DNA from: Tubulanus polymorphus
Taxonomy: Eukaryota; Animalia; Nemertea
NCBI RefSeq assembly: GCF_964204645.1
Contig: NC_134025.1
Span: 14,508,001-14,572,000, forward strand
Reading direction: 5' to 3'
Length of the DNA stretch: 64,000 nt
Both the position numbers and the translations under genes were made by a program. Position 1 is the first letter of the stretch; each line of letters starts with the position of its first letter. The notes beneath the pieces are model-generated. The model was not told the origin of the DNA. It made no database searches and saw nothing but the letters and a program-made list of their open reading frames with translations. Of the stretch, positions 228-50,214 are shown piece by piece.

Positions 228-724
228 ATTAGTTACATGTTGTCACTATGGTACCGCAGTGGAGTGAGGAGGGAGGAGTGAGGAGGGAGGAGGGATGACG
301 TCATACCGGAAGTGACGTCATCCAAGATGGCGGCCGGAAGTGGCGGTTAAAATTCAAATTTCAAATTTTGGCGGGAAAATTCAAAATTTTTCCGTTAAAT
401 CCAAATCAAATTATTGACAACAAATCCAAATCAATTTATTGATGATGTTAAATCCAATTTTATTTATTGACAACAAATCCAAATTTATTTATTGGGTACG
501 ACATCCTATGCGTGTGTGTGAGAGGAGGGGGAGGAGTAAATCCTAGATGGCGCTTTTCCAAGGAATCCCGAGTACGGGTGAAACGAAGTAAACCAAAAAT
601 TCCAAAAACAAATGTAAAACAAATTAATGTCAACAATTAAAAAACATTTATTAACAATAAATACGCAATAAATAGAATAAATAAATAAATAGGTAACTAT
701 ATTTTTGTCTTTTCACTCTGTTAC
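228..724 (+). repeat. Left terminal inverted repeat of Polinton-A
   Basis: Reverse complement of 14476-15058 except in the internal motif block (about 310-395). Confidence 0.95.
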
Positions 725-830
725 GTGTTCGGGCAAGTCATTTTCTGACAATAAAAACGTCATGTAAATCCATAAACTAATCATTCTGCTCAGAAACTTT
801 GAACCGTCAACATCGACCTGTATCGCCCAG

Positions 831-1647
831 ATGGATTCGACTAGTGGACAAACTACCTTAGAAATGTCAAGCACACCGATTCGAGCAAAGTCCTCTCTTC
901 AATCTAGAAAAAGAAAACACCCCTCGCTGAAACTCGACTTAAGTAAGTTTTATAACTATTCCGGTATTCGAAACCGTCAAATATTAAGTCATACGTATAC
1001 TGATATAGAATATTCTTTATTGTTTTATAGGTTCAATCGTTAATGACAACGCTGTTCCGTCGAAAGTTCAACGGAATACCTGGAACAATGACCCCGAGCC
1101 TCATTATCTAGGATCGCTTGTGTACGCGAGTGCGAAAACGTGGCAGGGGTTAAAACGTATAGATTTACGATCTTATGAGTGTTGCGAGCGTAGAAAACAA
1201 CTGTATCCCACAAAGAACGGTATTTCGCTAGATCTCCAAGAGTGGGTACATATAGATTATTGTAAAGCCGATATCGAACACGAAATTGCGCGCGTTAAAG
1301 AAGATATCGATTACGTAGGCGTGATGACCGTTGGTCGTTCGAACTTTATCAAAATCTATAGATCTAGTCACGATCATCGTATTTACGTAAATATCCGAAA
1401 ATATGATCTACACGATGAGCTTTTCGACGTAACTCCGACTAGATGCGGTGTAAAACTAACATTGGAATTATGGAAAAAGTTGAAAGACATTAATTTTAAC
1501 GACGATATACCCGAACTAGCCAACATGACGCCCTGTTGGTATGATTCGAGTCACTCGAATCAGGAATACAGGTGTCCGTACTGCGCAAAAGAAACTTCTG
1601 GAGTACGAAAAACACCTGAATACGGTGTAATGATCACCCAAGTATAA
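831..1647 (+). CDS. Spliced gene (exons 831-942, 1031-1647; 242 aa) for a tandem PC4-like ssDNA-binding/coactivator domain protein
   Basis: Two PC4-type motifs: RIDLRSY..YPTKNGISLDLQEW and YVNIRKY..PTRCGVKLTLELW. Donor GTAAGT at 943 and acceptor TTTTATAG at 1030 join the two ORFs in frame (729 nt). Confidence 0.8.
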
Positions 1648-2492
1648 TTAAAGTAGTTTAAAAGATATTAATTAGATAATATCTATATCATAACCGATTA
1701 ACAAAATGTGTAAAAAACATCAATTTATATACGTTAGTTTGCGTTAAACTCTCAGATAGAAATAAGTATCCGAAATAACTAATCCAGGACTTCATTAAGA
1801 TCCGCTCTAACCAAAGAGGATTAACTAAAGTAGTGAGTTTCTATCTTTTATGAATTTTATCGTTTTCTGTGTAGGTATATGGCCTATGTTTATCTATAAT
1901 ATTTATAAAAATATTTATGTTTTTTAGGACTAAATAAAACATTTATTGAATAAAAGATTTCATTTTTGACTCATTCTGATTTAACAATACGTTAATCTAG
2001 CATTTCGTTGCTATCCAGACCCATGATACGGTATACCGACAAAGAAGGCAATTAATTGATTTAGATCAATACACGACCACGATTGGGGAAAATAGGTGTG
2101 AGCAAAACCAATTACCAGTAGCAGATGGGTCGATAGTATCCAAACACCGTTAATTATATGCGGAAGACGAAGGCAATAAAGTGATTTAGATCGGAGACAC
2201 GACCGCAATGGGAAAATAGGTGTGAGGTTTCAAACCAATTACACTAGCAATAATTCGAACATTTTTAGTGCTCATAGCGCTGAGGTAATTAAGTTGTTTA
2301 GATAAAACCGAACAGATGGTCCTATATGCTGGGTGATATTAGACCAGAGTATCAAAAACACCGTTAATTATATGTGATAGAATCCTCAAATACTTTGAGT
2401 AAACTGTTAGACTATAAGAATTAATCAACTAATTAGTCGTCTGACTTAGACCCATAAATAAGGGGGTAGTTTTAGGACAAATCATTTCCAAG

Positions 2493-2834
2493 ATGTCTGC
2501 TATCGGAGGACGTTGGTTTGAAATTCCCGACGAACCGGAGGCAGTGCTTGAGTGCGGCATATGCTTCGAGACGGGGCAGCGGTGCTGGCTACTATGTAGC
2601 CAATGCCAATATAGAAACTTGACGTGTGGAAGCTGCGTCTCCGCCATAATACGCAGAAACCTTCAACTGGGGCGTGAAGACGCTAATGATGTTTTTTTGT
2701 GCCCGTTCTGTAGAAATGTTGTGCGCTGGGCACGTATGTTTGCAGAACATATACGCAAAGAAGAACAGAGAATGCGACGAAACCGACGCCGCCGTCACCA
2801 GAGACGGCAACAACAGCAGCAGCAACGTCGATGA
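2493..2834 (+). CDS. RING-finger-like protein (putative E3 ligase) with basic/Gln-rich tail
   Basis: CGIC..CSQC..CGSC..CPFCR cysteine spacing. TATA-like CATAAATA about 35 nt upstream. Arg-rich tail. Confidence 0.75.
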   Translation: MSAIGGRWFEIPDEPEAVLECGICFETGQRCWLLCSQCQYRNLTCGSCVSAIIRRNLQLGREDANDVFLCPFCRNVVRWARMFAEHIRKEEQRMRRNRRRRHQRRQQQQQQRR

Positions 2835-2877
2835 TGACGATGACGACGACGACGAACTCGGACACTGACCCCTTCCT

Positions 2878-2918
2878 CAAAAGGTCCTTTTCAGGACCAC
2901 TTCAATTTCCAAGAAAGA
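2878..2918 (+). terminator. Replication-dependent histone-type 3' stem-loop plus histone downstream element (U7 site)
   Basis: CAAAA-GGTCCT-TTTC-AGGACC-AC (6-bp stem, 4-nt loop, 2883-2898), followed by CAAGAAAGA at 2910-2918. Confidence 0.88.
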
Positions 2919-3042
2919 GCCAGTGTTTAAACGCCTCGCCTCGCTTTTTGCTTCAGTTTTTTCTCCAAGTTTTAAACAAAACTCTTCTGGTGAGTTTGTA
3001 GAATTTAAAAAAAACGACTAAATTCATATATATAATAGTTTA

Positions 3043-3504
3043 TTATAGCTTAAAATATTTCACGATAAATTTTTTTACAAAATAATCATTATCAGTAGTT
3101 TTGTTTGACAATAGTTTCGTAATATCGCGTACATCGTTACCGTGACATAGGTGTAATAGTACAAATATAGCGTAATAACCGCATACATTGGATAATACAT
3201 TTTGATACATCTTATTATTATATTTCCATTCTATACAATTTTCATCCAAGTATTTTTCTAACATTTTATCATAAGTTCCGGGTTGTTGCCCGAAGGAATC
3301 AAAAAAATAACCGATGCCGTATTCGTTTATATATATAGTTAGCCAGTGTTCACCCGGCTCGTCGTGATTATCAGTGTTTACTATAAAACCAGCGGGATAG
3401 CTCGTTATATTCGGTAGTCGATCGCATGGAAAAACACCAAAGAAAAACGCTTTCAGACATTCGTCTTTTTTCATAAACTCTAAAATTTGGTTTGTGTACA
3501 ACAT
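3043..3504 (-). CDS. Adenain-like maturation cysteine protease
   Basis: GVFPCD, VNTD..PGEHW (His), FFDSFG (Asp), Q..SNVCGYY (Cys). Confidence 0.93.
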   Translation of the reverse strand: MLYTNQILEFMKKDECLKAFFFGVFPCDRLPNITSYPAGFIVNTDNHDEPGEHWLTIYINEYGIGYFFDSFGQQPGTYDKMLEKYLDENCIEWKYNNKMYQNVLSNVCGYYAIFVLLHLCHGNDVRDITKLLSNKTTDNDYFVKKFIVKYFKL

Positions 3505-3509
3505 GGTCG

Positions 3510-4803
3510 CTAATAATCGATCTCTATATGACGTTCTTTAGTTACTTGTAGTAATTCGTCGAAAACGGCGTAAACAATCAAATTCACGTTATGCGGTAAA
3601 GCTTCATCAAATCGCATTTCGATTTTTAATGACCCCTTTTTAATTAGTGACATACTCTGGCGATATATTGAATCCACAAATAAAATAACCATTTTTGAAA
3701 TCCTCGCGTTTTATCCCAATTCCTTCGTTTTTATACAATAAGCCCCGGGCTAAATATAAACCGTGATACACTTCGCAACCGTCGCCACGAGAGTCTATAA
3801 GTAACGGCGAGTTTTGTGCATGGACATTATCAATGGTCACCCCTATATAATTCAATGAATAATCCTTGAAATCGAACGGATTCTTTTTGTAATTACCGCT
3901 CAACGCGTCGTCGTCCACTAAAGCTAAAACAATAGCCTTTGGTATCTTACCGACGAAAACGGAGTCCTTGATAATTGTTCTATGACCTCTTGGAATATTT
4001 AACGATAATAATTCAGTTCTCGAAAAATAATATTTTGCTGTATTCTTTTCCATTGCTTTAGCATGCGCTACTAAAACAGAACTATCCAGTTCTAGTTTAC
4101 GAATGTATAGTTGAGCGCTTTCAATCTTTATACGAAAATCTGGGTTTTCGGCGGGGGAAACTAGAGCAAAACTTTCCTTTGATCGAGTTAGTTTTATTTG
4201 TAAATCTGTATTGTTGATGAAAATCTTATTCATTCTCATTACATCGCTATACAAACGCGAATAAGCGCAAACCAGTTTACTGCCTTTAGTGTAGTTATTT
4301 CTTCTGACCAAACCGGAATTTGCGTCCGGTAAAGTAGGATCGATGTTTGCTTTCTTCCCGGCTTCGTCTTCGGCGTAAAGATCGCATTGTAGCCAGCTGT
4401 TGTTTTTAGTTTCCGAGTTGTAATTAACCATATTTTCCAGCTCACACTTGAACGGGTATAAGCCACCGTCGTGGGTAACCACTCGGTCGTAAAGCGTAAT
4501 TTGTACATCGCTAAATAGACTATAGGCGCCATTGATCATTAAGACTGACTTTTCAGGACCCACATTAGTTCCATCGGCGTTAACTATTTTAAACTGTAGT
4601 TTTAAATACGTGACGTTTAAATCTAAATATTGTTCAGTTTTTGGTACTCTGAATACAATCGGTCCCATATCGTTAATCGATGTAGTAGGCTCATAACTAA
4701 CGTATCGGCATTCTTTGAAATTTATCTGTCTTCCGGGAACTGTAAACAGATCGAGTTCAGACTTGACGCACAATGGCGAATCCTTATGTACTAATAACGA
4801 CAT
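3510..4803 (-). pseudogene. Major capsid protein (double jelly-roll), frameshifted near 3640-3650
   Basis: Polinton MCP-type N-terminus KSELDLF, YLDL, KKNPFDF. C-terminus GSLKIEMRF..IEIDY is in another frame. Confidence 0.9.
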
Positions 4804-5219
4804 AATAAGTACGCTTCAGCGGTTGCTTTGGTTTTTCGTACACGTTTTCCGGTTGTTATACGTCTACTTCCTTTACGACCTTTTATTGATTTTGGGGTTG
4901 AGGTAGATGGTCTTTTTAAGCTTCGTCTGATAATGCGACCCATTGTTTCGATGCCACGATCTTTGATGGCTGTCGCGATATTCTTACCGCCTACCACATC
5001 GCTGGCTACGTGTAAACCAGTTCTCAGTAAATGAGGAACCGCTTGCTTGGCCATATTTTTTAGTAGTGGAATAGCTGGACGAGCCAACCCGCCCAAGACT
5101 GATGCAAATCCAGCACCGCCTTGTACGGGAGACGCCGTGTATACGTCAATACCCGAACCGCATTGGTTCATGTAATATTTACAACAAGCATCCCGATCGA
5201 TTTCGCAGAGAGCCCTCAT
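4791..5219 (-). CDS. Conserved Polinton small virion/core protein with QxGxG-type motifs, amphipathic helix and basic tail
   Basis: YYMNQCGSG and VQGGAGFASVLGGLARPAIPLLK. Lies between mCP and MCP. Confidence 0.75.
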   Translation of the reverse strand: MRALCEIDRDACCKYYMNQCGSGIDVYTASPVQGGAGFASVLGGLARPAIPLLKNMAKQAVPHLLRTGLHVASDVVGGKNIATAIKDRGIETMGRIIRRSLKRPSTSTPKSIKGRKGSRRITTGKRVRKTKATAEAYLLCRY

Positions 5220-6076
5220 AGCAATAAATTCTTCTTTTTAAAATGTAAAGCTAAGTTAACTTTTCCTTTTCTGAACACGGGTATTCTCCCGGATTCAGTT
5301 CTTATAAAGACTTCTATAGTTTGGAAATTCCGTCTCTGTAGTGGGAAGTATTGTAACTTGGTAAATTCTCGACCAACAATTTTACCAAAATTTCTCGGAT
5401 TCAAATCAATCATGCGCAAGAGATTTGCGCTTTGATGTCCGACCAGCTGAGGTTCGATAACATCTGTATATATCATTAAATTATGATAATCGACGTTTAT
5501 ATCCGAACTGTGGGCTGCAGTAACCTCGATGTATTTGTAAACTGTTTTACTATCGGATGAATCTGACAGTATAGGACCATGTATTTTAGAGCCTTGACGA
5601 TGATCTGTTATATCTTCGTTAATCGGTATATTTTCTTTAAAACCCAAAATCCACGCAATATCACTCGTAAAAGTTATTGTGCAGTTGTCATAAAATCGGA
5701 TACAAACTTTATGACTTAGTTCATTGAATGCAAGAACTATCTTATTATCATACCATTTGTTTAACTCTGTTTGTATAGCGACAATTAATTGGGTAATTGT
5801 CAAATAACGACCTTCGGGTATATTGAGATAATGAGTTCCTTGCTCAGACGACGTACATTGAAATCTACCATTGTTCACGTTATTGAAATCTGCCATAAAG
5901 TTTATTTGATGTAAAGCGCAAACCCATTTGCCTTGAAGTGAAATCGGTGTTCGTAATCGAACTTTAAAACTATGTTGCGTATTATCGGGATAAATGTCTA
6001 CGCTAGCATCGCTTTTGAGATATACGTAAAAATCCTGACTCATGTTAACTTCTTGATATCTCGAGCGTTCACCCAA
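5216..6076 (-). CDS. Minor capsid protein (penton); likely start MSQDFY
   Basis: FYVYLKSDAS..YPDNT..FKVRL..LQGKWVCAL, IYTDVIEPQLVG..LLR, C-terminal LHFKK. Confidence 0.88.
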   Translation of the reverse strand: MGERSRYQEVNMSQDFYVYLKSDASVDIYPDNTQHSFKVRLRTPISLQGKWVCALHQINFMADFNNVNNGRFQCTSSEQGTHYLNIPEGRYLTITQLIVAIQTELNKWYDNKIVLAFNELSHKVCIRFYDNCTITFTSDIAWILGFKENIPINEDITDHRQGSKIHGPILSDSSDSKTVYKYIEVTAAHSSDINVDYHNLMIYTDVIEPQLVGHQSANLLRMIDLNPRNFGKIVGREFTKLQYFPLQRRNFQTIEVFIRTESGRIPVFRKGKVNLALHFKKKNLLL

Positions 6077-7122
6077 GAATTGAATTTATCGGGATAGTTA
6101 TACCACTTTACCAAGTATTGTTTTCGAACGCCTTTACCCCGAGTTTTAATTATCGACTCGATCTTATACGTTTCATCCTTTTTATTGAATTTTATCAACT
6201 CGTATCCGTAAAACACGCCATCTATTGTTACGTCTTGTAAATCTTTAATCTTGTATACAGGTGGCTCACGCATAATTCTTTTCGTAACGATAAACAACTC
6301 GGTACTCCACCCGGGTAAATAGCCTTTTTGGAATTGTCCTTTGAGTTCGCTTATTCGCACAGTGTCGCCAACGCGAAACTTAAATTTCACGCGTTTTTTA
6401 CTACGGATTGTACCGTATAGATTCTTGAAAACTTTGTACGCGTTTAACTCGTTGACATCGTTTGGAGCCATTTTTATACTACGATGAAACGATTTATTGT
6501 ATGACGCTACTATATCTTTAAGCAAATCGATATATCTGTATGAATTTCTATGCGAAAATATCTTATACATTTACGATTTTAAAGTACGTATCCATCTTTC
6601 GATTAAAGCGCATTTTACTTCGTTTTTACTTTGGAAAAAACGTACGCCTTCGTTTTTCAGATACGCCTGCGTTTTTGAACCGACAAATTCTGTGCCTGAA
6701 TCCGATTGAATAACGCCAGGTTTCCTAATCTTGAAAATCTTTTTAAAACCATCCACAACGGTAGAATTAAATTTAATCTCTAACGGTATAGCGAACGCGT
6801 ATCTAGACAATACATCAATAGCCGTCAATAGAAATTTGTAACCGTCGTTGTGTTTCGAAATATTCGAAACGTCGCACAAGTCAACCTGAAATTGTTCGTT
6901 CACTCGATAGGCTATAGTTTTGTTTCTGGGAAATCTCTTTCGTACTTTGGCGTGTAACGTATGAACTTCTTGTTCGGCTAACCAGTCTCGTATCTCACGT
7001 AAAGAGATATTTTTGTTTTCTTTTTTACAAATCCGTAGTAATGTATTTGCGTTTGAAAAACTTCCTTCTTTGTCGACGCCATAATATTGATTCGCCAGGA
7101 ATCTTTTCTGTTCGGCTTTCAT
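6040..7122 (-). pseudogene. Retroviral-like (rve) integrase with C-terminal chromodomain, one in-frame stop at 6571-6573
   Basis: QVDL, IDVLSRY, QSDSGTEF, IERWIRTLK catalytic motifs. Chromodomain YLVKWYNY..NSWV. TAA between LKS and MYK. Confidence 0.93.
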
Positions 7123-7243
7123 CGATTACAGTTGTACTACCGCAACACGTGCTCAATACGCAATTAACTCTATTGAATTGACACTCGAAATTCGGCTCCT
7201 CCTGCTTCAAACAACAACAACAAAATAACTTTCGCCAATTCAT
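7025..7243 (-). CDS. Small cysteine-string protein overlapping the integrase start
   Basis: ATG start, LFCCCCL and STCC motifs, basic C-terminus. Same strand as its neighbours. Confidence 0.5.
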   Translation of the reverse strand: MNWRKLFCCCCLKQEEPNFECQFNRVNCVLSTCCGSTTVIDESRTEKIPGESILWRRQRRKFFKRKYITTDL

Positions 7244-7298
7244 CTTTTCTCATAATTTTATTTACACTTAAAAAAACAATATGCTTTTAATGACTTTT

Positions 7299-7823
7299 TT
7301 ATTTGGAACAAAGAATGGTATAGAATAGAACTTCTTCGTAGGCTTCCTGTAAATCGTTGAGTTTTTTGGCACCCGACAATATTAAAGTACCGCCGTTATG
7401 TACTATACATTTTATTCCGTTTTCACATTTGTACACAAAACCGGGAAATATTTCAGGATTATAATCGCCGTCAACTGTTTTGGAAAGTTCCACTAAGTCT
7501 ACGCGTCGACCGATTTTTGCAACTCCAGTCATAGTTTGTATTTTCAAGTTATTCAAGTTCCCCGTGTATCCCATCCTTTGTATCAAACGAGCAAATTTCC
7601 GTGTACTGCATCGGCTGTTAAACTCGCTTTTACATCCTGTCACTACCATTTTTCCATTTACGAACAATAGACAGCTACCTTGTATACTTCTATGTTTCCA
7701 CATCAATCCGCTAAACTTTCGGGGGTCATAAACGACATTACATAATTTTCTCGCAATATCGGTTAAATTTAAACGGCAATTCAAATGCGCTGTGGATACA
7801 ACGTTTACAACCTCAATCATCAT
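7299..7823 (-). CDS. TATA-binding protein (TBP)-like, element-encoded
   Basis: Two TBP repeats: NVVST..YDPRKFSGL..LLFVNGKMVVTGCKS and YNPEIFPGFVY..GTLILSGAK. Confidence 0.93.
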   Translation of the reverse strand: MMIEVVNVVSTAHLNCRLNLTDIARKLCNVVYDPRKFSGLMWKHRSIQGSCLLFVNGKMVVTGCKSEFNSRCSTRKFARLIQRMGYTGNLNNLKIQTMTGVAKIGRRVDLVELSKTVDGDYNPEIFPGFVYKCENGIKCIVHNGGTLILSGAKKLNDLQEAYEEVLFYTILCSK

Positions 7824-8011
7824 TAACGTGCTTACTCGACCACAAATGAAACCGCTATATCCATTCCACTAATAATATAATTGCAAAACCCGCTGACCGT
7901 TGACACGCCCAAACACGAATAATGAAACGCTCATAACATATCAATCCGCCACAAATGAAGCCCGGTCATTGGTCAAAGCTTTTTGACAGTCGTGATTAGG
8001 TTTTCTAGTCG

Positions 8012-8572
8012 TTAAAAGGATAACCAGTTTGTGAAATTCACATTGCCATCCCGCACTCCACACAGTCCGGATCCGCTCTGATCATACTTTGGTTTCTTTC
8101 TCTTTGGAGACAACGACATATCTAAATCTACGGTAAGTTCACCTTTGATACTTCTCTTTAACGTTTTATTCGAAATAAGACTCAATGGTACGTTCAACTC
8201 GTTAAATGCAGATATATATTTATCTAGGCCGATATATTCTTGATCCATTTTAGTTTGTACTAACGACATGTGTAAAATATCGTCAATGTTGCTTCCACGA
8301 ATTAGATTGTCCTTGTAAATCAGTTCGCCTTTATCATTCCATTTCAAAATTCCTGGATTATCTTCAAAAAATGCTAATAGGGATTTACATTTTTTCCTAA
8401 ATCTTAGCGGTAACCGATCAATAATCTTCTGCGTAGTATATTTGCCCGAGATTTCTTTATTATCTTGTGTCGTTTGGTTAATATCCTTTTCTACAGATGA
8501 TTTATGTATTTCTTGCTGCAATAACTGATTATACTTTAAGTATTTGAGATCGTCGGGTATTTTGTTATCCAT
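8012..8572 (-). CDS. Conserved Polinton hypothetical protein (N-terminus probably disrupted, original start about 8690)
   Basis: WNDKGELIY..GSNIDDIL motif that I recognise from Mavericks. QSGSG near the C-terminus. Confidence 0.7.
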   Translation of the reverse strand: MDNKIPDDLKYLKYNQLLQQEIHKSSVEKDINQTTQDNKEISGKYTTQKIIDRLPLRFRKKCKSLLAFFEDNPGILKWNDKGELIYKDNLIRGSNIDDILHMSLVQTKMDQEYIGLDKYISAFNELNVPLSLISNKTLKRSIKGELTVDLDMSLSPKRKKPKYDQSGSGLCGVRDGNVNFTNWLSF

Positions 8573-8701
8573 TAGAGGGTTGTAGGTAGCGGGTGTTTCT
8601 TATTCTTGTTGACGTTCCTGACTCGCGATAAAAGCTTGTATCGAGGGTAACATGGAATCGGGTAAAATGATTAACTTTTCAACGTTCTTCATGCTATTGC
8701 C

Positions 8702-9073
8702 TTATCTACTATTCGGTTTGCGGCGTTCGTTAAAACAGACGTCAGTATAGGTTTTCAAAAGTGGTAGTAAAATGAATCGCAGAAATCCACCTTTTTGCGA
8801 AATCATTCCTCGTTTATGTTTAATGGCTATCGAATTGTTGGCCAACATGCGTATGTAACGTTTATGTTGTTTCAACACGCGTTTATCTTTGTCGCTATAT
8901 TTTATATTTCCTGCTAAACTGTTTTTGGATATCTCGCATACGCACTTGATTAAGTCTGACGGAGCCGATTCTATCAACGCTCTACGTTGTTTCTTATTAC
9001 ATTTACCCAACACGTGTAAATGATGTATATATTTTTTCACTCTTTGTAACGAGTTGTTTTTACGCTGCGCCAT
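8702..9073 (-). CDS. Conserved basic Polinton protein (putative core protein)
   Basis: ICE/CxN-type motif (KCVCEISKNSLAGNI) and QKGGFL. Adjacent to the ATPase. Confidence 0.75.
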   Translation of the reverse strand: MAQRKNNSLQRVKKYIHHLHVLGKCNKKQRRALIESAPSDLIKCVCEISKNSLAGNIKYSDKDKRVLKQHKRYIRMLANNSIAIKHKRGMISQKGGFLRFILLPLLKTYTDVCFNERRKPNSR

Positions 9074-9109
9074 GGTCTTCTTTTATTAGTTAACCGATGA
9101 ATTATACTT

Positions 9110-9760
9110 TTAATGAATTTTCTTTGTTTTGTATATTATATGGTATTTATCGCTAGGAAAAATTCTAGTTCTCAAACGCCATCTATCATCAGTTTTTGGT
9201 TTAAAATCCAGTAAAAGATAACCGTGGGGTTCCTTGGTCGCGTCTCTAAAGGCCGCTTCAATTTCGTTTTTCAAACCGGCTTGTTGAGCGAGAACGCGAA
9301 CTTGATTTCTATCTCGCGCGTTTTTAAAAACGACAATATAATGCGAGTTTAAACTAATCGTTCTAAACTCTTTGCCTTTCGGGAAAATATTTTGTACAAT
9401 CGTAATAACGCTGATGTTGCGATGATGGGATCCTCGTGTATACAAAGAAGCTAACGCGTTATTACTCCCTACTTCATTCATCAGATCGTCGACTATAATT
9501 AATGTACGTTTACTGCCATCTATTTTGTCGTAGAGTTCCCCGGAAAAACCCTCTACAAACTGCACTCCAAACTTTTCCAATTCGTTGAACATTTCGGGTT
9601 GCGCCTCCGCGTAACACCAATATATCTTATCGGGATTTTTTTCGACAAGATTCTCCGTTATAACTTTTTTGACAAACACACTTTTACCGGAACCCGTCAG
9701 TCCTGCAACTATCATCGTGAATGGATGGGATAAGTATCTCGGGCCATTATACTCTGCCAT
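9110..9760 (-). CDS. Genome packaging ATPase (A32/FtsK-like)
   Basis: Walker A GLTGSGKS, Walker B LIIVDD, TRGSHHRNISVITIVQN. Confidence 0.95.
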   Translation of the reverse strand: MAEYNGPRYLSHPFTMIVAGLTGSGKSVFVKKVITENLVEKNPDKIYWCYAEAQPEMFNELEKFGVQFVEGFSGELYDKIDGSKRTLIIVDDLMNEVGSNNALASLYTRGSHHRNISVITIVQNIFPKGKEFRTISLNSHYIVVFKNARDRNQVRVLAQQAGLKNEIEAAFRDATKEPHGYLLLDFKPKTDDRWRLRTRIFPSDKYHIIYKTKKIH

Positions 9761-9845
9761 CTTAGTGTTTTAAGTGTTTTAGCTGCGAATGAAAAACACT
9801 TTTAATAGAAACAAGGGGGTTGTCAATATTTGAAAAATACAGTAC

Positions 9846-10127
9846 ACGCATTTTATAGTTTACTAAACTTTTTATTTTCACTAAACGAGGTTCTAACAAT
9901 TTTCAGCTTTCTAAAATATGGTTTGCACTTTTTTAATAGGAAAATACTATACGGTTTTGACAAAAAATCATAAGTTATATTTGAGGTTTAGATTTTTTTT
10001 CGATTTACGCAATTTATAGTTTACTAAATTCTTTATTTTCACTAAATGAGGTTCTAACAATTTTCAATTTTGAAAAATATGGTTTGCACTTTTTTAATAG
10101 GAAAATACTATACGGTTTTGACAAAAT
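9846..10127 (+). repeat. Two imperfect direct repeats of about 120 bp (period about 161) in the divergent intergenic region
   Basis: ACGCA.TTTATAGTTTACTAAA...GGAAAATACTATACGGTTTTGACAAAA occurs twice. Confidence 0.85.
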
Positions 10128-10217
10128 AACATTAGTTAAAATTACGGTTTGACTATTAATCGATTTTAGATATTCGAGGTTTGACTATTTTTTCATAAAC
10201 GCTATCGGACTTTCGTT

Positions 10218-10535
10218 TCATGTGTTAATATAAATTCTTCGTATGAAATATTTACGCTCCGGTTGAAGTTCAATCACGTCTAAACAAAATATAGCGCCGA
10301 CAATTTTATAAAGGAATCGCTCCGTCATATTTAATTCTTTCAAAACAATGCATAATCCATCTGGTTCGTCGCAATCTACAAATTCTCTGGCTAAACGTTG
10401 AATATCTGTTAAATGCCTTTGACCGAGTAACACTTGGTGTAATCGCGTGTAATCCAAAATCGTGAACAATAGCCTTCGTAATAGTCCGTCCATTGTACTC
10501 GATAGTCGCTCCATAATTGACTTGTAAACACTCAA
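10218..10535 (-). CDS. Hypothetical protein
   Basis: Globular-looking 105-aa ORF divergent from the zinc-finger gene. No recognisable motif. Confidence 0.35.
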   Translation of the reverse strand: MSVYKSIMERLSSTMDGLLRRLLFTILDYTRLHQVLLGQRHLTDIQRLAREFVDCDEPDGLCIVLKELNMTERFLYKIVGAIFCLDVIELQPERKYFIRRIYINT

Positions 10536-10588
10536 GATTAGTCTCTTTTAAAAATATTTCATATTCAATCTTTTTTTCCTCACAGAAA

Positions 10589-11090
10589 ATGTATTCATGC
10601 CAATACTGCCCGTTGACCTTTGCCAATGAACTTGGTTTGGAACAACACCAGCAACTGCACGTTGGTAAGAAGGGGTTTAAATGCTTGAGCTGTTGCAAAG
10701 CATTTGCGTGTGCGCGCGATTTAACGCACCACACCGTCATTTGTATGGCACCCCAACCGATTCAGCAACAGGCGTCTGTAGCTTTGGCTATTCCGGTAAG
10801 TAGATTAGAACCGTTCGTTTTAATTATTATGTGGTTGAACGTATTACCAAATATCTGTTTTTTATTTTCAGCAAATATGGGACTGCAATGCGGTCTTAAC
10901 TTTGCTAACCAGCAAACGCTGACGCGACACATGGGTTCCCATTTTGGGACTTCTGATTGTCAATGCGTCACACACATGTGGTAAGGTGTTTGCGCGCAAA
11001 GACCATTTGAAGCGACACGCTAAAACGTGTAAGGGATACGTTGTACAACACGACGTATCGTGGTCTGTACTACATCGGAGGCTAAACCGG
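10589..11090 (+). pseudogene. Spliced multi-C2H2 zinc-finger gene (intron 10796-10871), frameshifted in exon 2
   Basis: Fingers CQYC..HQQLH, CLSC..HTVIC, QCGLNF..HMGSH, TCGKVFARKDHLKRH. GTAAGT donors at 10796 and 11091, acceptor TTTTCAG at 10871. Confidence 0.75.
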
Positions 11091-11125
11091 TAAGTTTTGA
11101 AATTATGAGTTACAAAGAAAAACCG

Positions 11126-11127
<2 letters not shown>

Positions 11128-11175
<48 letters not shown>
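11128..11175. repeat. (TA)n microsatellite
   Basis: Direct reading. Confidence 0.95.
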
Positions 11176-11177
<2 letters not shown>

Positions 11178-11230
11178 TTTTTTAATATACATTCAATGTC
11201 ATTGTCTATTGAAGGGGTCCGAGTGTCCGA

Positions 11231-14200
11231 GTGCCGATTGCCTTACATACGAATGCCGGTGTGCCCCAAGGCAAGTGTGGATTGCGCGAGTTGGACGTAT
11301 TTTCGAAACAATTATCCGAATACTACATAATTGTTGTAACGGGGGATCATATCGCGTATCACATTTTATACGAGAACAATCGCAATGTGTTAGACGCTCA
11401 GGGTGTAAATGCCAAAAAACTTATATTATTATATACAGATGGCCATTTCGATGTAATTACATCGATGGCTTCATTTACCTGTCGCGTATACTATTGCTAC
11501 ATTTGTAAAAAAGGGTACATGAATACCGAGCGACATCGCTGTACCGATAAATGTAGACTTTGCTTTGGGGATTGCGTAGAACAACGGGGAAATTATTTGT
11601 GTATAAAATGCAATATCTATTTTAAATCGGAAGCGTGTTTAGCCAGACACTGTAGACCAAGAGCAGACGGGGTAAGCGTATGCGATTCGAGAGCGAGATG
11701 TTTACAATGCGGGTCTATTGTATCTAGAAAGAAACTTGATCCTAAATCTCACGACTGCGGTCAAAAATACTGCAGTTCTTGTAAAGAGCAAAAGCCTAGC
11801 GGCCATCTTTGCTACATCGGGGTCGCCAAAAGTCAGGATCATGTGGTTTCTGAGGAGCAGGGTAACCCTCATACACTAATTAACCCGTATTTGGATGCCG
11901 ATAAGGCTGGCGATGAGCTAAAATATAGAAAGTTCATCGCATTCGATTTCGAAACAACGACTGTGGAATCGAACCACGTTGTAGTATTGGGTATAGCGCA
12001 TAGAATATGTCAAATGTGTAAATGGTCGAAACGGACCCCTGACTCGGTTTGCGATTATTGCGGTAAACATGAACACGTGTTTAAAACGGACTCTGAATTC
12101 TGCGAGTGGTTGTTTACGGAAGAGAATAGGGGCGCCATTGTTTTCGCGCATAATTTTCAATCCTTTGACGGTTACTTTATTCTTCAATATTTGGTGTCAC
12201 AAGGTATATTACCAGATATTGTACCAAACGGCGGGAAAATAATGACTATGACCGTCACACATTTGGACATAAAGTTTTTGGACACGTTGAATTTTCTACC
12301 AATGAAACTCGCTAAATTACCCGAAACACTAGGTATTCCCGAGTTGAAAAAGGGCTATTTTCCGTATAAATTCTGCACTCGCGAGAATATTGATTACGTC
12401 GGACCTATTCCCGATGTAGAATATTACAATCCCGACGGTCTAAGTTCGAGCGAAAGGTCTGATTTAATAAAGTGACATAGCGATCGGCAGTCGGAACATT
12501 TCATTTTTGATATGCAACGCGAGTTGGTCGAATACTGTCGTTCAGATGTGGATATTCTGATGCAATCGGTCGTAAATTTTCAACATCAATTCTTTGCTCT
12601 TTCGGCTGTTGATCCATTTCGTAATAGCATCACTATAGCATCGGCGTTCAATGTGGCATTACGAACAAACTTTTTGAAACCGAAAACAATAGGGCTAATC
12701 CCTCCAGGCGGTTATAAACCTAATGCAAAATTTTCCAAGATGGCAATTAACTGGTTGAAATGGGTATCCACAACGAATGACATACGAGTCCAACACGCGT
12801 TGAACGGCGGCGAAGTATCAATTGACCGCTTTAAAGTAGACGGTTATCACGCCGAATCCAATACCGTGTACGAATTCACGGTTGTTTATATCACGGATGC
12901 CCTAAGTGTTTCAAAAATCCGGATTTGATATCTCCGGTACGACCCGATCGTAAATTTGGTGAATTATATCAGGCCACATTAGAAAAAACATCTAAAATTA
13001 GAGCTTTGGGTTACAATTTGGTAGAATTTTGGGAACACGAATATCGTGACTTGGTTAAAGAAAACCACGCGTTTGCAGATTTTGTCAAGAAATCTGATAT
13101 TCTCGATCCATTGCAACCACGTGACGCATTTTTTGGAGGTCGTACGAACGCGATAAAAATTTATCGCCAAGCCGAGGGTGAAGAAAAAATCAAATATATC
13201 GACATATGCTCGTTATACCCGTATGTCAACAGTCGTTGCAGTTATCCAATCGGTCATCCGACTATTGTGACTGAAAATTTCCGCGATATTGAAAATTATT
13301 ACGGGTTGATAAAGTGTAAGGTTTTACCGCCTCGGGGTTTATATCTACCAGTGCTCCCATATAGATCGGGTGGGAAATTGACTTTCCCATTGTGTCGAAC
13401 GTGCGCTAATGAAAGCAATCAGCGCGAAAAGTGTCATCACTCGGATGATGAACGTTCGATAACGGGTACCTGGGTAACTTTAGAGGTACAAAAAGCAGTG
13501 AAACTTGGTTATAAGATATTAGATATATATGAAATTTGGGATTGGGAAACTAACGAAACGGGTTTATTCGAGGATTATATAGGAAAATTCCTCAAAGTTA
13601 AAACTGAAGCTAGTGGCTGGCCGGCTAAAGATATGTCTCGCGAACAGAAGGATAAATTCATTTCCGATTATTTAGAGAGAGAGGGTATCCAACTCGAAGA
13701 AGATAAGATTAAGAAAGCCAAGGGGATGCGAACAGTCGCGAAATTATGTTTAAATTCGATGTGGGGTAAACTCGGTCAAAACGAAAATAAGACGACGGCC
13801 AAATATATTTCGGACCCCGGAGAATTACATAGAATGCTTTTGGATGAAACTTAGAGATAAGCGATCTGTTGTTGTGTAATGACGAGGTGTTAAGAGTGCA
13901 TTACAAAAAACGCGAAGAATTTGTCGAATCGACAAACAAAACCAGCGTCGCTTTAGCAGCTTTCACAACGACTCATGCGCGGCTTATTCTCTATAGTTAT
14001 ATGGAGAAATTAGGGGAACGAACCCTATACACGGATACCGACTCCATTATTTATAGCGTGAAACCTGGTGAATGGGATCCGCCAACCGGTAATTTTTTGG
14101 GTGATATGACTGATGAGTTGGTTGATAAATACGGGGAGGGGTCGTTTATTTCAGAATTTGTTTCGGCTGGACCCAAAAATTATGCATATCGGGTATTTAG

Positions 14201-14474
14201 TCCTAGAGATAATGAATTCTCGACTGAATGTAAGGTTAAAGGGATCAATTTGAATTTTCGAAACAAGCAAATTGTAAACTTTGGTTCCATGGTGGATATA
14301 ATTGTCGAAGAAAAGTACGACCATCATTACATATTAAATCCCGACAAAATCAATAGAAAGATCAAGGACTGCTCTATTTACAATAGAGACGAACGTAAAA
14401 TATATCGCACCGTTTATACAAAACGAGCTTTTGACCCCGCAGATCGGTATAACACGCTTCCGTACGGATATTAA
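11231..14474 (+). pseudogene. Protein-primed family-B DNA polymerase with inserted Vsr-like nuclease domain; split by stops and frameshifts (about 12475, 12880, 13854)
   Basis: Exo motifs FDFET, HNFQSFDG, YCRSDV. Pol motifs GGRT, DICSLYP, KLCLNSMWGK, YTDTDS, GPKNY, KVKG. Vsr-like VDGY..YEF..WEHE. Confidence 0.95.
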
Positions 14475-14475
14475 T

Positions 14476-15058
14476 GTAACAGAGTGAAAAGACAAAAATA
14501 TAGTTACCTATTTATTTATTTATTCTATTTATTGCGTATTTATTGTTAATAAATGTTTTTTAATTGTTGACATTAATTTGTTTTACATTTATTTTTTGAA
14601 TTTTTGGTTTACTTCGTTTCACCCGTACTCGGGATTCCTTGGAAAAGCGCCATCTAGGATTTACTCCTCCCCCTCCTCTCACACACACGCATAGGATGTC
14701 GTACCCAATAAATAAATTTGGATTTGTTGTCAATAAATAAAATTGGATTTAACATCATCAATAAATTGATTTGGATTTGTTGTCAATTTATTGATTTGGA
14801 TTTTAACCGCCAATTCCGGTCGCCATCTTGGATTACGCCACTTCCGGTCGCCATCTTGGATTACGCCACTTCCGGTCGCCATCTTGGATTACGTCACTTC
14901 CGGTCGCCATCTTGGATTACGTCACTTCCGGTCGCCATCTTGGATTACGTCACTTCCGGTCGCCATCTTGGATTACGTCACTTCCGGTATGACGTCATCC
15001 CCCCTCCCCCTCCTCCCCTCACTCCACTGCGGTACCATAGTGACAACATGTAACTACT
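14476..15058 (-). repeat. Right TIR of Polinton-A with six tandem 28-bp units (14813-14980)
   Basis: Unit CTTCCGGTCGCCATCTTGGATTACGYCA x6. The remainder is the reverse complement of the left TIR. Confidence 0.95.
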
Positions 15059-16040
15059 TGTGTGTGTAGAACGTTTGGGCGAAGGTATTATCCCCCGGTA
15101 TCACGCGTAAAACAAACAGAAAACATATTTTCATACATAGGTCATCGCATTATAGAAATTGAACTGTTGACAAGTTGTATTAAATCTGTATAGATGAAAC
15201 ACTTTTAAGGAAAACGCATTATGTCCGTAGTTCCTTTATATCTACTATTGACTGTGCGCCTCGGGCTCAGTCAACTCGCCATCTTCATGATTGTGTGATG
15301 GAGTGACTATCACCACAGAGAGTTGACCAGATCCGAAGGAGTAAAGTCGAAGAGCGTGTTGTATTTTGTGAATCTAAACAGCATCTGACTATATTACTAC
15401 AGTATAGGGTTACAGTACAGTACACATGGCGCGAAAACATCAACCAATCATATAAGAGAGACATCAACGAATCATATAAGAGAACCAACACATGTCGTTC
15501 TCGACACTCCGGGGGCGGCGGTAAGCGCCGAATTTGAAAGTTTACTCTAAGATAACATGTATCGCATTAAATTGAAAGATATTAATAATCACTATACTAA
15601 GTAATAGTTTCACGTATGAAATTGAATCGCCATAAGGGCTAGAAATAGAGACATTGCGTTGTGTTGAATAAATGAGTACATAAAGACTATTTCATAATAA
15701 ATGACTATCTATAGAAAGCAAGTTAACATCGTATCGAATAACATTTAAATTCATTAATCCGCTTTATAGTAATAATAAGTAATTCCCAACACCAAGAGTG
15801 ATTAAACGATATTTCAAGTCCTTTCCGGTAAAGAAAAGTTTCGAAGCAAACGCGTTATTTGTTTAAGATCGGAAACGATTAAAGTTCAGAAAACGCGTAA
15901 AAACGATAACGTGTTTGACCTCGCGGCCGACGAAGAATTTAACGTAAACACGCATGCAGAATCACGTGATGTAAACATAGTCGAGTAAAAAGGCAATAAT
16001 AGCCTACGCATCGGTTTCATACATATAATCCAGACAGAGT

Positions 16041-16442
16041 TCAGTCTTTTAATAATTTCGTCCAATTTCTAATCTTTCGCTGAGCGTTGGCTGCGGCCAG
16101 CCTGGTCGCACGCGTTTTCGGTTGATTTGTATCGGTAATCGTACCGGTATCCGATGAATCATCGACAGATTTCGCGTTAATTTCCAGCGGATATAATTTC
16201 GATACGGGTCGGTTCGTACGGCCGGTACTTGTTCTAATATCCGCTGATCGCACAAGTCCATCGGCGCTAACGTTTAATTTCTCGACGAGTGCCATACGCC
16301 AGTGTATTCGCTTCTTGTTGTCCTCGTGCACTAAAACAATGCCGCCAGTTTTTATTTTGTTTTCGAGTTTCCCGTTGAGTTTCGCACGTTCTCTGAGCGC
16401 TATCAAGTATTCACGGCTCCATTGTCGTTTGAATGAACTCAA
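16041..16442 (-). pseudogene. BEL/Pao pol C-terminus (post-integrase DUF5641-type region)
   Basis: WSREYL..LRE, WRMALVEKL..DGLVRSA..RPVSKLYPLE. Confidence 0.88.
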
Positions 16443-18880
16443 AAGTTCGATCCATATTTTTCCGGATCAATGATCTTTAAGATACCCGCTTTTTCTAACT
16501 GTTCGTGTTGTATCGACATGGTAGTCTCGTCGACAGATTCATCAGTTTTAATTTCGTTATCGGCTTGAAATCGCGAGACTGGCCAATCGCCGACTTTCAA
16601 CCAGTCGGGCCCGTGCCACCATAGTGTTGAGTTGGCCAGTTGATGAGTGGTTATACCGCGTGTTAGTAGATCCGCTGGGTTATCTTGAGTCGGTACGTAA
16701 TTCAATTCCACATCGAGATTGTCTAGCTTCAAGGAGTTTATCTCGTGCACCCGATTTTGAACGAAACACGGAAGTCGATTTTCACTCCTAGTCCAACTTA
16801 GGACTATCTCGCTATCGGACCAGATAATCGCTTTGCTGAAATTGTAGCATGGATTGAGCGCATCGAATGAATATTTGATCAAACGGGCGCCGACGACGGC
16901 GGCCATTAGCTCGAGGCGCGGTAACGAGAGCTGTTTAACGGGTGCAACTCTGTTTTTCGCTATGACAAGCGCGGTGTTTTCCCCTTGACGTAGATAAACG
17001 GTGGCTCCGTAGCCACGTGAACTCGCGTCCACAAAGCTATGTAACTCAGTATCGGTATCCTCCGACGGCGCAGAAAAATACTTCCGGTTAATCGTTATTT
17101 TTCTCGCATTTTGTAGATCGCGGTACAAAGTTTTCCAGTTATTGCTCACCTCGTCTGGTAATAATTCATCCCACGAGACATTCGCTTTCCATAATTCTTG
17201 GATGAATATTTTTGATTTGATGTGAACCGGTGATAACAGTCCTAACGGATCATAGAGACTCGCCACGCTCCTGACGATTTCGCGCTTCGTAATAATTTCT
17301 GGTTCGCTATGCTCGATCGCTTGTTTGTATTTAAGCCTGTCCTGATTGACATCCCACAGGAGTCCTAGGTTGCTGACAACGTCATGTCCGTTCAATAAGT
17401 TGTCTTTACTCGCAATATGTCTGAGGTTTTCGCTGTTACTAGTCCACTCACATAGTTTAAATCCTGCGTCGGACATCATCCGATTCGCATTATGGTAATA
17501 ATCGATCGCTGTCGATTCGTCTTTCACCGACGTAACGACGTTGTCTACGTATATGCTCGATTTCATATCGTTAGCTACCGTGCTCTTATCTTTGTCCAAA
17601 TGTGATTTTATGACGGCATTGAGAATAAACGGCGAGCACGCTGCTCCGAATAATACAGATTTAAATTGATACGTAATGAATTTGCTTTCGGGGTCGTTTG
17701 GATCGCTTAGCCAGAAAAATTTCGTGAATTTCCGGTCTGGCTCGGCTAGGCCCACTTGAAGGAAGGCCTTTTCGATGTCGCTACTAAGTCCAACGTCGCA
17801 TGTACGAAAGTTCATCAAGATCGAACCAAGATCGTTAAGCAGTAGCGGTCCTTTTTCCAGGCAGTCATTTAAACTCGGAGACTGACGCGTACGGAAGCTA
17901 CAATCGTAGACGACGCGAATTGGTGTTGTAGCTGAGTCTTTCTTCACCGAGTAGTGCGGTATATAATCACCTTCGGATTCGTTTTCCTCGTGGATCGACT
18001 CGATGAATCCACGCGCTATTTGATCTTCGATAATTCGATCATAGATTTTTCGGGTATCGTTATTTAGTTTCCTGACAATCGCTCGCGTTCGGTTGGCTGT
18101 GTTCAGTCTATTGGTCGGTAATGGAGGGTGTTCCGGCCTCCATGGTAGCTGCGCAACGTATTGGTTTCCCGCCATTTCGATACAATCCGTCGCGTAATTT
18201 TCAAACGTAAGTTCTTCGTTTATCGGGTGTTTTATCCCGAGTGTTTCGACCCTCCAAAAGTTTTCGAGTTGGTCTCGTTCATGAGTATCATCGGTGAGGA
18301 TAAAGTTCGCGTAGTCACGACGGTCGTGACTCGAGTTTTTTAGCGGACCCGAAAGAAGATAACCGAGTTTTGACGCAACCGCTGTGGGGCCGTTGCCCCT
18401 GACGACTTTGTCCTCAACTAAGGACCAGTAGTAGTTGGATCCAATTAATAGAGCGATTTCGAACGATTCACGACCGCTTACAGGGTGCGCCAGTTTCAGA
18501 CCCGATAGATAAGGTAAATTACGTGTATCTTTGATGTGATTACTCATAGGTGTCGTAATGTTCGATTTTACGAGTGCGCTTATCGGCACGTCTCCAGTTT
18601 CGGTTTTAATGGCTAACTTGACCCGGTCGTATTTCCTTTGTTTAGATTTAGTATCTCCGAAGATCGAAAGATTCAGTATTTCGCTCGACTCCGGTTTCAA
18701 GTTTAATTTCACGGCTGTTTCCTCCGTGATCCATGTTCGGGTCGAGCCTTCATCAAACAATATGCTGACGGTCTCGGAGTTTTGATGTTTTTCATCAGTA
18801 ATTTCAGCAACAGCTGTCTTTAAGACGACTGGCGTCGATACGGTGATTGAGTCTTGTGAATTTAGCACGCCGATGTACAT
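16439..18880 (-). pseudogene. BEL/Pao pol: aspartic protease, reverse transcriptase, RNase H
   Basis: LFDEGS, TTPIRVVYD, DIEKAFLQ, FGAACSPF, YVDN, FVDAS, PRLELMAA, NPADLLTRG, WWHGPDWL. Confidence 0.93.
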
Positions 18881-19243
18881 TTGCCTGTCATCGCATCGCG
18901 GGTTCTGATCGTTATGACCAGCTGATTGTGGTTTTTTGCCGCATAGAGATGTATGGTGTTCATCTGAACATACGGAACAGCAATAGCGTGACCTGCAATC
19001 TCTGGCTTAGTGATTTTTTCTCAAACAATTTCGGCAGAGATATTCTCTTTTCACTATATCCATCCGTTTTTCCAGAGTGTTATAGATCAGACAATCCCTT
19101 GATTTGTGGTCTTTCTTGCAGTAGTTACATTGAATTTTATAATTACGGTCTAGACGGCTTGTTTGATTTCGTTTTCTGTGATGAATTAATAACGACGTGT
19201 CTGTGGTTTCGTGTTCTGAATCGCTGATGAGCACACTTTGAAT

Positions 19244-19693
19244 CGGTCATCCTTATTACCGAGATGATGTATTTTACCGAGATGAACCGAGATCAACCGA
19301 GATGAAATTAAATATAACATATTCATTTATTCCATATCGATTTTAACCATTGAAATCATATTATATCAGTAATAAATGCCTGCTGGGTTCATATTTTACA
19401 TATTTTGTCGGATATTTTTGGAAAAATAACTTTTAACTTTACCGAGATGAGATCGTCGATCAATCAAATTCAATGAAATTTTATTGCTAACCGAGTTTAC
19501 GTTTTTTGAGTCAAAATTTCTTTAAATAAAAAAATATGTAAAATATGACTCTAGGAGGTATTTATTACTGATATAACATGATTTCAAGTGTTAAAATCGA
19601 TAAGGAATAAATAAATATGTTATATTTAATTTCATCTCGGTTGATCTCGGTTCATCTCGGTAAAATACATCATCTCGGTAATAAGGATGACCC
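19244..19693. mobile_element. Palindromic MITE inserted in BEL gag
   Basis: Long TIRs (GGTCATCCTTATTACCGAGATG...). Perfect 8-bp TSD CTTTGAAT at 19236-19243 and 19694-19701. Confidence 0.92.
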
Positions 19694-20664
19694 CTTTGAA
19701 TGGCTTGTCCTGCCAGACCCGCTTGAATCTCTTTCTGTAACGCTTTCTTCAATTCAGTTAAATTCCATGCTGAATCACCATGGTCGCGTGTGATCTGAGT
19801 TTTAATTCCCGACGGGAGTTTCTCGAATATGACTGGAATCAGGAGATCCCCATAGCTTTCCTCGGTCTTACCGAGAGATTTTAGACCCCTGATATAGCCT
19901 TCCAGTTCATCGTAGAACTTTTTCATCTGTTGTACATTTTCGCGTGGTTTTGGCAATTCCCACAATGCCTTCATATAAACGTTGATCAATTTATGAGTTT
20001 GTCCGTACCTGTTTTTCAAAAGTTCAATGGCTTCGACGTAGTTGTTATTGGTCAGTGATAAGCCCTCGACGCATAGGGCCGCTTCTCCGCTGAGTTGCGC
20101 ACGAAGATACTGGAATTTTTGGATGTCGTCTAATCCGGTATCGTTGTGGATAGCTGATTCGAATGCATCTATAAAGCCGATCCATTGTAGTAAATCCCCG
20201 CTGAATGTCGGTAAATGTAACTTAGGTAGATTGACTTGCCTTGATTTGTTGTTAATCGGTTGATGAGTTGTCGTTGTCGTCGGTTTCGTGTCATTATTGA
20301 ACGTTTCAATAAAGAATCTATACTTTTGTATTTCGATAATCCGTTCGAATGCGAAATCATCTGCTTCTGCGATAGATGATTGTAGATTTTCATCAGGCGT
20401 CAACGAGAGAATTGTTTGATCTAGTTCTTGTATGAGGTTTAGCTTTGTGACCGCTGATGATATGATTGCTACCAGATCTTGAACTTCGGCTAGGCCTACT
20501 TTTGTTGATCCGGATTGTAGGCTCTGGTAGACCTCTTCTGCACGATTGAGGTATTTAGATAACTGCCCTCGGTGGGCCAACCGAGATGCTGTAGGACGCT
20601 TCGTTTGGTCCATTTCGTTTTGACGCTCAGTTTCGTCATTCGCATTTTCCGATGTCGTCGACAT
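19694..20664 (-). pseudogene. BEL/Pao gag (DUF1759-type); zinc-knuckle part continues below 19236
   Basis: LPKLHLPTFSGD..W..F, QKFQYLRAQLSGEA, NYVEAIELLKNRYG. CNYC..H..C and CRNC..H in the 19007-19234 ORF. Confidence 0.9.
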
Positions 20665-20665
20665 A

Positions 20666-48491: not shown

Positions 48492-48497
48492 AATAAG

Positions 48498-50205: not shown

Positions 50206-50214
50206 CTATTTATA

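Follow-up and report, generated by a model that had tools for sequence, protein, structure and literature searches.

Can a gene carried by a virus-like mobile element end its messages in the manner of a metazoan histone gene? The question arises in Tubulanus polymorphus, within a 64,000-nucleotide stretch of contig NC_134025.1 (hereafter the window), where a preliminary description read a histone-type processing signal behind a short ORF of a Polinton. In the accessible text of PMC5054213, histone mRNAs appear to be the sole mRNAs processed by the U7 pathway, and UCUUU is given as the universal U7 box. The marks of the animal signal, as listed in the available part of a 2026 survey (10.64898/2026.10.14.759114), comprise G-C pairing at stem position 2, U as the third loop base and a distance of 25-60 nt separating stop codon and 26-nt unit, along with a purine-rich downstream element and cleavage five nucleotides past the stem. 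The same part of the survey reports no processing factors in large DNA viruses. If the reading is true, a mobile virus-like element using the histone cis-signal breaks the histone exclusivity of the U7 pathway.

The element itself is a complete but decayed Maverick/Polinton, in agreement with its earlier assignment, which terminal inverted repeats, a target-site duplication and core genes by Pfam bear out. The 6-bp duplication, TGTGTG, stands at 222-227 and 15059-15064 with matching ends, and the inverted arms pair 397-724 with 14476-14803 (98%) and 230-345 with 14948-15056. Pfam recovers PC4, Peptidase_C5, chromo, rve, TBP, Pox_A32, a C2H2 zinc finger and DNA_pol_B_2 within these bounds. Decay is visible as an in-frame stop that splits the integrase, a polymerase in four pieces and a capsid frame that appears to end early. 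The element and the genes that concern us here are as follows.

228 to 15058, no strand assigned: complete Maverick/Polinton of 14,831 bp (target-site duplication, inverted repeats, Pfam).
1324 to 1647, plus strand: PC4-like gene, upstream neighbour of the RING-like ORF (Pfam PC4, 24 bits).
2493 to 2834, plus strand: orphan RING-like ORF of 113 aa, intronless (ORF list; sub-threshold Pfam).
3043 to 3504, minus strand: adenain-like cysteine protease gene, convergent with the RING-like gene (Pfam Peptidase_C5, 20.5 bits; 7 homologues).

The RING-like gene thus sits between the PC4 and protease genes. Elsewhere in the element, a TBP gene (window 7299-7823, Pfam TBP 119 bits) has a counterpart at the matching place in two related loci, L027 and L028 (43-44%), and was not seen in the other 78 of the best 80 of 260 such loci. 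The terminal repeats contain a 28-bp unit, present in 6.2 copies on the right (14814-14988) and about one on the left (293-345), in which we take certain words to be YY1-, ETS- and CRE-like.

The candidate processing signal comprises two parts.

2878 to 2903, plus strand: histone-type stem-loop unit of 26 nt (Rfam RF00032, fold).
2910 to 2918, plus strand: histone downstream element CAAGAAAGA (sequence; spacing as in the control H2B gene).

Lying on the plus strand at 2883-2898, the stem GGTCCT-TTTC-AGGACC begins 48 nt past the stop of the RING-like ORF, close to the 50 nt first estimated. Within the 26-nt unit, a CAAAA 5' flank precedes 6-bp stem arms (2883-2888 and 2893-2898) that enclose the loop UUUC; stem position 2 is G-C, the closing pair is U-A and loop position 3 is U. 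The unit lies 43 nt from the stop, where the published range is 25-60. Direct reading of the sequence has CAAGAAAGA starting 11 nt 3' of the stem, at the distance originally given, and its AAAGA core, located at 2914-2918 and separated from the stem by 15 nt, matches the complement of the UCUUU box in U7 snRNAs. Cleavage is predicted at 2903-2904, the nearest CA ending at 2904. The preliminary description had also seen no histone ORF nearby, and none appears in the ORF lists or, by Pfam, among the 17 ORFs of the element. By sequence, this is a complete histone-type 3' signal, in the right orientation and with the right spacing, behind a non-histone ORF.

A histone cluster found in the same searches served as a positive control for this geometry. 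In four control histone genes of contig L113, the stem is followed by the AAAGA core after 12-15 nt (15 nt in H2B), compared with 15 nt here, and the stop lies 21-30 nt before the stem. The 3' flank reads ACTTCA at our locus versus ACCAC or ACCAT in the control genes, with agreement at the first two bases. The cluster, spread over L110, L113 and L114, is a tandem array of animal H2A, H2B, H3 and H4 genes with a period of about 5 kb that is filed under a Bdellovibrionales MAG, most likely as contamination.

Covariance scoring, folding and resampling were then set beside the anatomy. An Rfam scan, suggested at the outset, matched Histone3 (RF00032) at 2878-2923 with 34.8 bits and an E value of 2.4e-6, exceeding the cut-off of 34 by 0.8 bit; it is the sole gathering-level Rfam match within the 64-kb window, and a permissive E-value scan of the Maverick gave no second Histone3 match. 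A 28-nt piece folds into a hairpin of -9.3 kcal/mol (z -3.0), with 2 of 200 shuffles equally good. First-order Markov resampling of the 14.8-kb element, repeated 300 times and covering both strands, produced the stem-loop pattern once and never the stem-loop with a purine core. Because of this E value and the 0 of 300 resamplings with stem-loop plus core, we do not attribute the signal to chance.

Equally important is the identity of the gene that the signal follows, whose further features are these.

2453 to 2486, plus strand: predicted promoter, a TATA-like box (2453-2460) with an initiator-like TCATT (2482-2486) (sequence).
2829 to 2855, plus strand: GAC/CGA trinucleotide run of low complexity that contains the stop codon (TRF).

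The ORF encodes no histone, as no histone family was matched by Pfam or in the ESM Atlas. Its 113-aa product carries eight cysteines (C-x2-C-x10-C-x2-C-x6-C-x2-C-x21-C-x2-C) in an all-cysteine region that terminates in CPFCR, and an Arg/Gln-rich basic tail, a basic helix, lies C-terminal to it. Pfam RING_XB3 scores 20-21 bits, under the cut-off of 50, while the protein's neighbours in the ESM Atlas (0.87-0.90) belong to RING clusters or are small proteins of viruses. The preliminary designation as a RING gene is therefore retained in part: the eight cysteines have RING-like spacing, but the Pfam match is sub-threshold (21 versus 50 bits). A RING ubiquitin ligase is the likely reading of the predicted protein. 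None of the 3 candidates from a homologue search is a relative, and the 5 matches among 1.84 billion representatives are all proteins of 400-2696 aa, aligned over several short stretches each. No match was returned by tblastn against any of the loci collected, no relative by single-protein scans of viral contigs and nothing useful by a PDB sequence search. The single-sequence fold model is poor (pLDDT 58), and a viral fold search with it produced no E value below 3.8. The G+C content of the ORF is 52%, compared with 38% in the element and 38% in a host gene, a difference partly due to the Arg/Gln tail; it follows that the cassette of ORF and signal may, as a whole, be a foreign gain.

Upstream of the ORF, the words at 2453-2460 and 2482-2486, which we take to be TATA-like and initiator-like and presumably to act as a promoter, are 29 nt apart, both 5' of the RING-like ATG, and CCAAT words precede the TATA-like box at 2108 and 2235. 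In the surrounding region (window 1980-2400), a degenerate repeat recurs two to three times at intervals of about 125 bp, the plus strand carrying CCAAT words and the minus strand a frame rich in cysteine but interrupted by stops; a 6-nt insertion distinguishes sister copies there. A decayed second RING at about 1985-2160 on the minus strand was considered and set aside, as three frames translated with X in place of stops had no Pfam match. An alternative gene frame, the +1 frame over about 2730-2868, which encodes an acidic stretch and ends 14 nt before the stem, was rejected, since the present frame persists to 2801 in a sister contig that has no gap, and the change commonly seen at 2768 leaves the protein sequence in this frame unaltered.

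A histone-type end would take the place of a polyadenylation signal, and the downstream sequence was read accordingly.

3039 to 3044, minus strand: AATAAA hexamer located at the protease stop, serving the convergent gene block as its poly(A) signal (sequence).

No AATAAA or ATTAAA occurs on the plus strand from the RING-like stop to 3679 (844 nt), and the copy at 3039-3044 belongs to the minus strand; the earlier statement that no AATAAA precedes the convergent protease gene holds for the sense strand. Weak hexamer variants follow the RING-like stop in an A/T-rich stretch (ACTAAA at +182 and GATAAA at +229). Because the 14.8-kb element has 22 plus-strand hexamer sites, the 844-nt gap is mild evidence when taken alone. 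The other block ends carry AATAAA or ATTAAA at -1 (PC4), -2 (protease), -5 (TBP), -5 (ATPase) and +73 (polymerase end) relative to their stops. A distance of 140 nt separates the histone-type signal from the protease poly(A) site, which places the signal where the two genes converge.

Four of ten listed runs were aligned over 1500-3700 at 80% likeness, with X1 and X3 consisting of contigs and X5 of raw DNA reads, about 12% of which were read. X7, possibly an RNA run, contributed no contigs, an outcome that bears neither way on expression. The alignment skips the repeat at 2802-2869, and 2883-2955 is swamped by reads from other loci. X5 depth is 85-108 immediately before the ORF, 68-101 within it and 96-127 immediately after; for most X5 reads, likeness to the window is 90-99% or under 90%. 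Depth and likeness together indicate a multi-copy family, most members of which carry the RING-like ORF. A contig of X3 spans 2620-2801 without a gap and shows 2 differences. Another, from X1, has 9 differences, represents a roughly 5%-diverged sister and links 2929 to 3097, so that in this sister the protease end adjoins the module's downstream half. The segment is consequently not peculiar to one copy, a prospect that the preliminary description had raised against its own reading: many sister copies have the ORF, and one sister contig has the downstream half. Among the variants listed, four are ORF substitutions, of which one is synonymous and three change amino acids (E-D, P-A and V-I); an 84%-alike version of the ORF is also present in the reads. 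Part of the family differs here, as follows from the ORF depth in the contig runs X1 and X3, which is a quarter to a half of the upstream depth, and from an X1 contig that departs from the window sequence after 2508. Behind PC4, a 149-nt stretch (1663-1813) is skipped by about 39 X5 reads and by X1 and X3 contigs, a common structural variant.

Read depth also bears on the origin of the signal. Over 2832-2979, X5 depth climbs to 385-504. Among the reads listed, 962 have loose ends before 2883, and 381, 101, 321 and 157 (960 together) have loose ends behind 2924, 2925, 2928 and 2955, respectively. The rise in depth and the loose ends show that several loci, commoner than the Maverick, share the stem-loop and downstream element. 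The shared module measures 45-73 bp and occurs at several higher-copy host loci, its right edge being defined by the following feature.

2919 to 2955, plus strand: downstream tail common, partly or wholly, to higher-copy host loci; right edge of the module (loose read ends).

Reads over this tail have insertions at 2934/2937, and the loose 3' letters of the higher-copy loci resemble the window tail at 2932-2955. Their loose 5' letters end in AAC, as in the control histone genes, where the window has AAAA. The higher-copy loci are probably host tandem histone genes and the donor of the module; alternatively, they could be a non-histone gene family or a repeat, with which the 30 letters seen are compatible. 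That the module and a further 30-nt tail are shared with host loci points to capture from the host, which we consider likely. Because the tail is still alike beyond the downstream element, the capture appears to be recent, and conservation cannot yet be read as selection.

As a general feature of Polintons, the signal is not supported. Of 260 metagenome loci confirmed with a protease alignment, the best 80 were retrieved; Maverick core genes are present in most of them, and Rfam Histone3 matched 0 of the 80; 59 of them reach at least 300 nt past the protease stop and 29 at least 1000 nt. PC4 converges directly on the protease in 12 of the 80, and 8 of these 12 have an ordinary AATAAA on the opposite strand. 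A relaxed pattern applied to 717 kb (the best 80 of 260 loci and 25 viral loci) gave one hairpin, with no downstream core. The signal was likewise found in none of 26 viral-collection loci, comprising 25 distant ones from the protease alignment and one Maverick from a capsid alignment (L119). The closest relatives, L027 and L028, have the same gene order, including TBP, with 50-65% identity in core genes and 46-60% in shared capsid-like ORFs. Their sequences run out 189 and 322 nt beyond the protease stop with no signal, and since both stop so early they do not settle the neighbouring slot. The 0 of 80 among the best of 260 loci makes the histone-type end, on the sequences compared, a lineage-specific gain of one Maverick subfamily and no Polinton trait. 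Three parts of the original reading (a Polinton, a complete signal, no canonical sense poly(A) signal close by) are supported. Directly behind its protease (6800-7106), L028 also has an inverted repeat that is long and nearly perfect and may reflect either an artefact of assembly or the insertion of a small element. A second Maverick of another type lies in the window itself (47400-64000); it is A+T-rich, has an ORF duplicated at about 58.2 and 59.1 kb, and gave no Histone3 match with Rfam.

Searches outside Mavericks returned another example. Among genome contigs, the stem-loop pattern was found in 11 stretches: 3 from one true histone cluster, 7 bacterial and L111, a 1086-bp eukaryote-like contig within a bacterial MAG. 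Within 132-870 on its minus strand, L111 has an intronless 220-aa MADF-domain ORF (PF10545, 35 bits). A TATA precedes this ORF, and a Histone3 match of 42.7 bits lies 25 nt past its stop, with a downstream element in addition. As annotated here, L111 is an independent second non-histone gene with the same histone-end architecture. The 7 bacterial stretches were discarded, as they have no full stem and the 4 scanned with Rfam gave no match. In viral contigs, a phage sequence (L001) has a perfect stem inside an ORF on the other strand with no downstream element, and another phage (L107) has no stem. BLAST of the module against phages gave chance matches only.

How the RING-like message is made can now be considered. 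On balance, we think it somewhat probable that this Maverick subfamily produces the message by host SLBP/U7 cleavage near 2903 and not by polyadenylation. RNA polymerase II would start near 2482, SLBP would bind 2878-2903, U7 would pair with 2910-2918 and CPSF73 would cut at about 2903-2904. The resulting tail-less message would be translated and degraded like a histone mRNA, and would then be present mainly in S phase or stored in oocytes. Its product, a putative nuclear RING ubiquitin ligase, would be made while host DNA synthesis is on, a timing that would suit an element replicating and integrating in the germline. The cut would also keep the RING-like message from overlapping the convergent capsid-protease transcript. 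The strongest argument for such use is geometric: the signal is in sense, at canonical distance and behind the one block end that has no poly(A) signal.

The same geometry has to be weighed against simpler histories. The module may be a passive, recent capture of a host histone 3' region or repeat that is now inert, with the ORF either silent or polyadenylated at the weak signals. The shared piece does run about 35 nt past the downstream element, its edges at 2883 and 2924-2955 are sharp, the other loci exceed it several-fold in abundance (962 and 960 loose reads, among those listed), the best 80 of 260 relatives have no such module, the 3' flank departs from consensus and hexamers stand at +182 and +229. 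Against inertness, a random landing in sense, at canonical distance and behind the only block end without a poly(A) signal would be rare, with an estimated 35 or so permitted positions among about 30,000 on both strands, and the module is present beyond one copy. We regard this account as unlikely, though it is the main competitor and deserves serious consideration. Chance resemblance, by comparison, is hardly credible. Its points are the margin of 0.8 bit over the Rfam cut-off and the ability of a very large collection to yield a perfect stem-loop, as in the one phage match without a downstream element among all viral contigs; the E value, the resamplings and the presence of the same module at higher-copy host loci all contradict it.

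Two other possibilities keep the signal active while assigning it a different task. Some invertebrate histone messages keep the stem-loop yet are polyadenylated further on, and the RING-like message might similarly retain its stem-loop for SLBP-dependent translation or storage while being mostly polyadenylated downstream at a weak signal. ACTAAA and GATAAA in their A/T-rich stretch, together with the non-consensus cleavage flank, are compatible with such a dual end, but the downstream element, needed only for cleavage, is intact and correctly spaced, and polyadenylation there would overlap the protease message; we judge a dual end rather improbable. We give still less credence to the idea that the signal works through SLBP/U7 as a plus-strand read-through terminator ahead of the capsid-protease block, avoiding dsRNA and silencing, with the ORF and its timing incidental. 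Its position at the convergence point, 140 nt from the protease poly(A) site, would suit a terminator, and in the accessible text of 10.1101/2023.08.25.554787 U7 represses human LTR12 via HDE-like motifs, an action on mobile elements that does not consist in mRNA production. Relatives, however, manage convergence with an opposite-strand AATAAA (the 8 of 12 PC4-convergent loci above), and the RING-like frame is uninterrupted, follows a TATA-like box and is maintained in sister contigs.

Production of the message by SLBP/U7 cleavage, the reading that we prefer, can be placed among known systems. The locus resembles the metazoan histone 3' end (RF00032, HDE, SLBP, U7 snRNP and CPSF73) in its stem, loop, A-rich 5' flank and AAAGA core, and the RING-like gene is, like histone genes, short, intronless and without a canonical poly(A) signal nearby. 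Unlike histone genes, the ORF is non-histone, lies inside a mobile virus-like element and has the flank ACTTCA, and its histone-type processing is a prediction. The element shares with animal Mavericks, as presented in the main text of PMC8502044, inverted repeats, a 6-bp target-site duplication, a protein-primed polymerase B, rve with a chromodomain, and ATPase, protease and capsid-like genes. It differs from the 80 related loci (the best of 260) in having, between PC4 and the protease, one additional gene that is RING-like, rich in G+C and followed by a histone-type end. A mobile element with a motif complementary to the U7 5' end has a parallel in human HERV1/LTR12 (10.1101/2023.08.25.554787, accessible text); there, HDE-like motifs occur alone and U7 represses transcription, whereas here a stem-loop and an HDE stand at the position of an mRNA end. 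The predicted protein resembles small viral RING ligases (Nucleocytoviricota and Preplasmiviricota, ESM Atlas) in its length of about 110 aa, eight spaced cysteines and CPFCR end, and differs from them in having no alignable relative, 141-148 of 256 features shared, all-cysteine ligands and unusual spacing.

Precedents in the literature were sought in the same connection. The main text of PMC8502044 names other accessory genes of Mavericks and adintoviruses (oncogene-like, Bcl2, IAP), and the word RING is absent from it. In the main text of 10.64898/2026.10.14.759114, Polinton, Maverick, non-histone and transpos- do not occur, and the accessible parts of PMC13525598 and 10.64898/2026.08.17.745202 have nothing bearing on a histone-type end in a Polinton. 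The literature search, which covered openly accessible articles and preprint main texts, found no report of a histone-type 3' end on a Polinton gene. The candidate locus provides a natural setting in which to ask if histone-type processing can operate at a distance from histone promoters and from histone locus bodies. If the reading is true, Mavericks gain a concrete means of coupling gene expression to DNA synthesis in the host or to the egg. Poly(A)-selected RNA sequencing would miss such messages, which could explain why they have gone unnoticed. Non-histone stem-loops may reportedly be listed in the survey by Davila Lopez and Samuelsson from 2008. More tentatively, the ubiquitin ligase of a viral lineage might be a client of SLBP/U7, tail-less and either confined to S phase or stored in eggs, as one case of a wider and so far unreported use of histone ends by non-histone genes and mobile DNA in marine invertebrates; we consider this broader proposal less likely than not.

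Two other stretches of the window were also annotated. Remains of an LTR retrotransposon, BEL/Pao-like by eye, lie at 16000-20900 with gag- and polymerase-like frames on the minus strand, and an intronless CCDC63/ODAD1-like host gene at 32821-34497 suggests a nemertean host, its best named relative being from Lineus longissimus (61%) and the next from Owenia fusiformis (49%).
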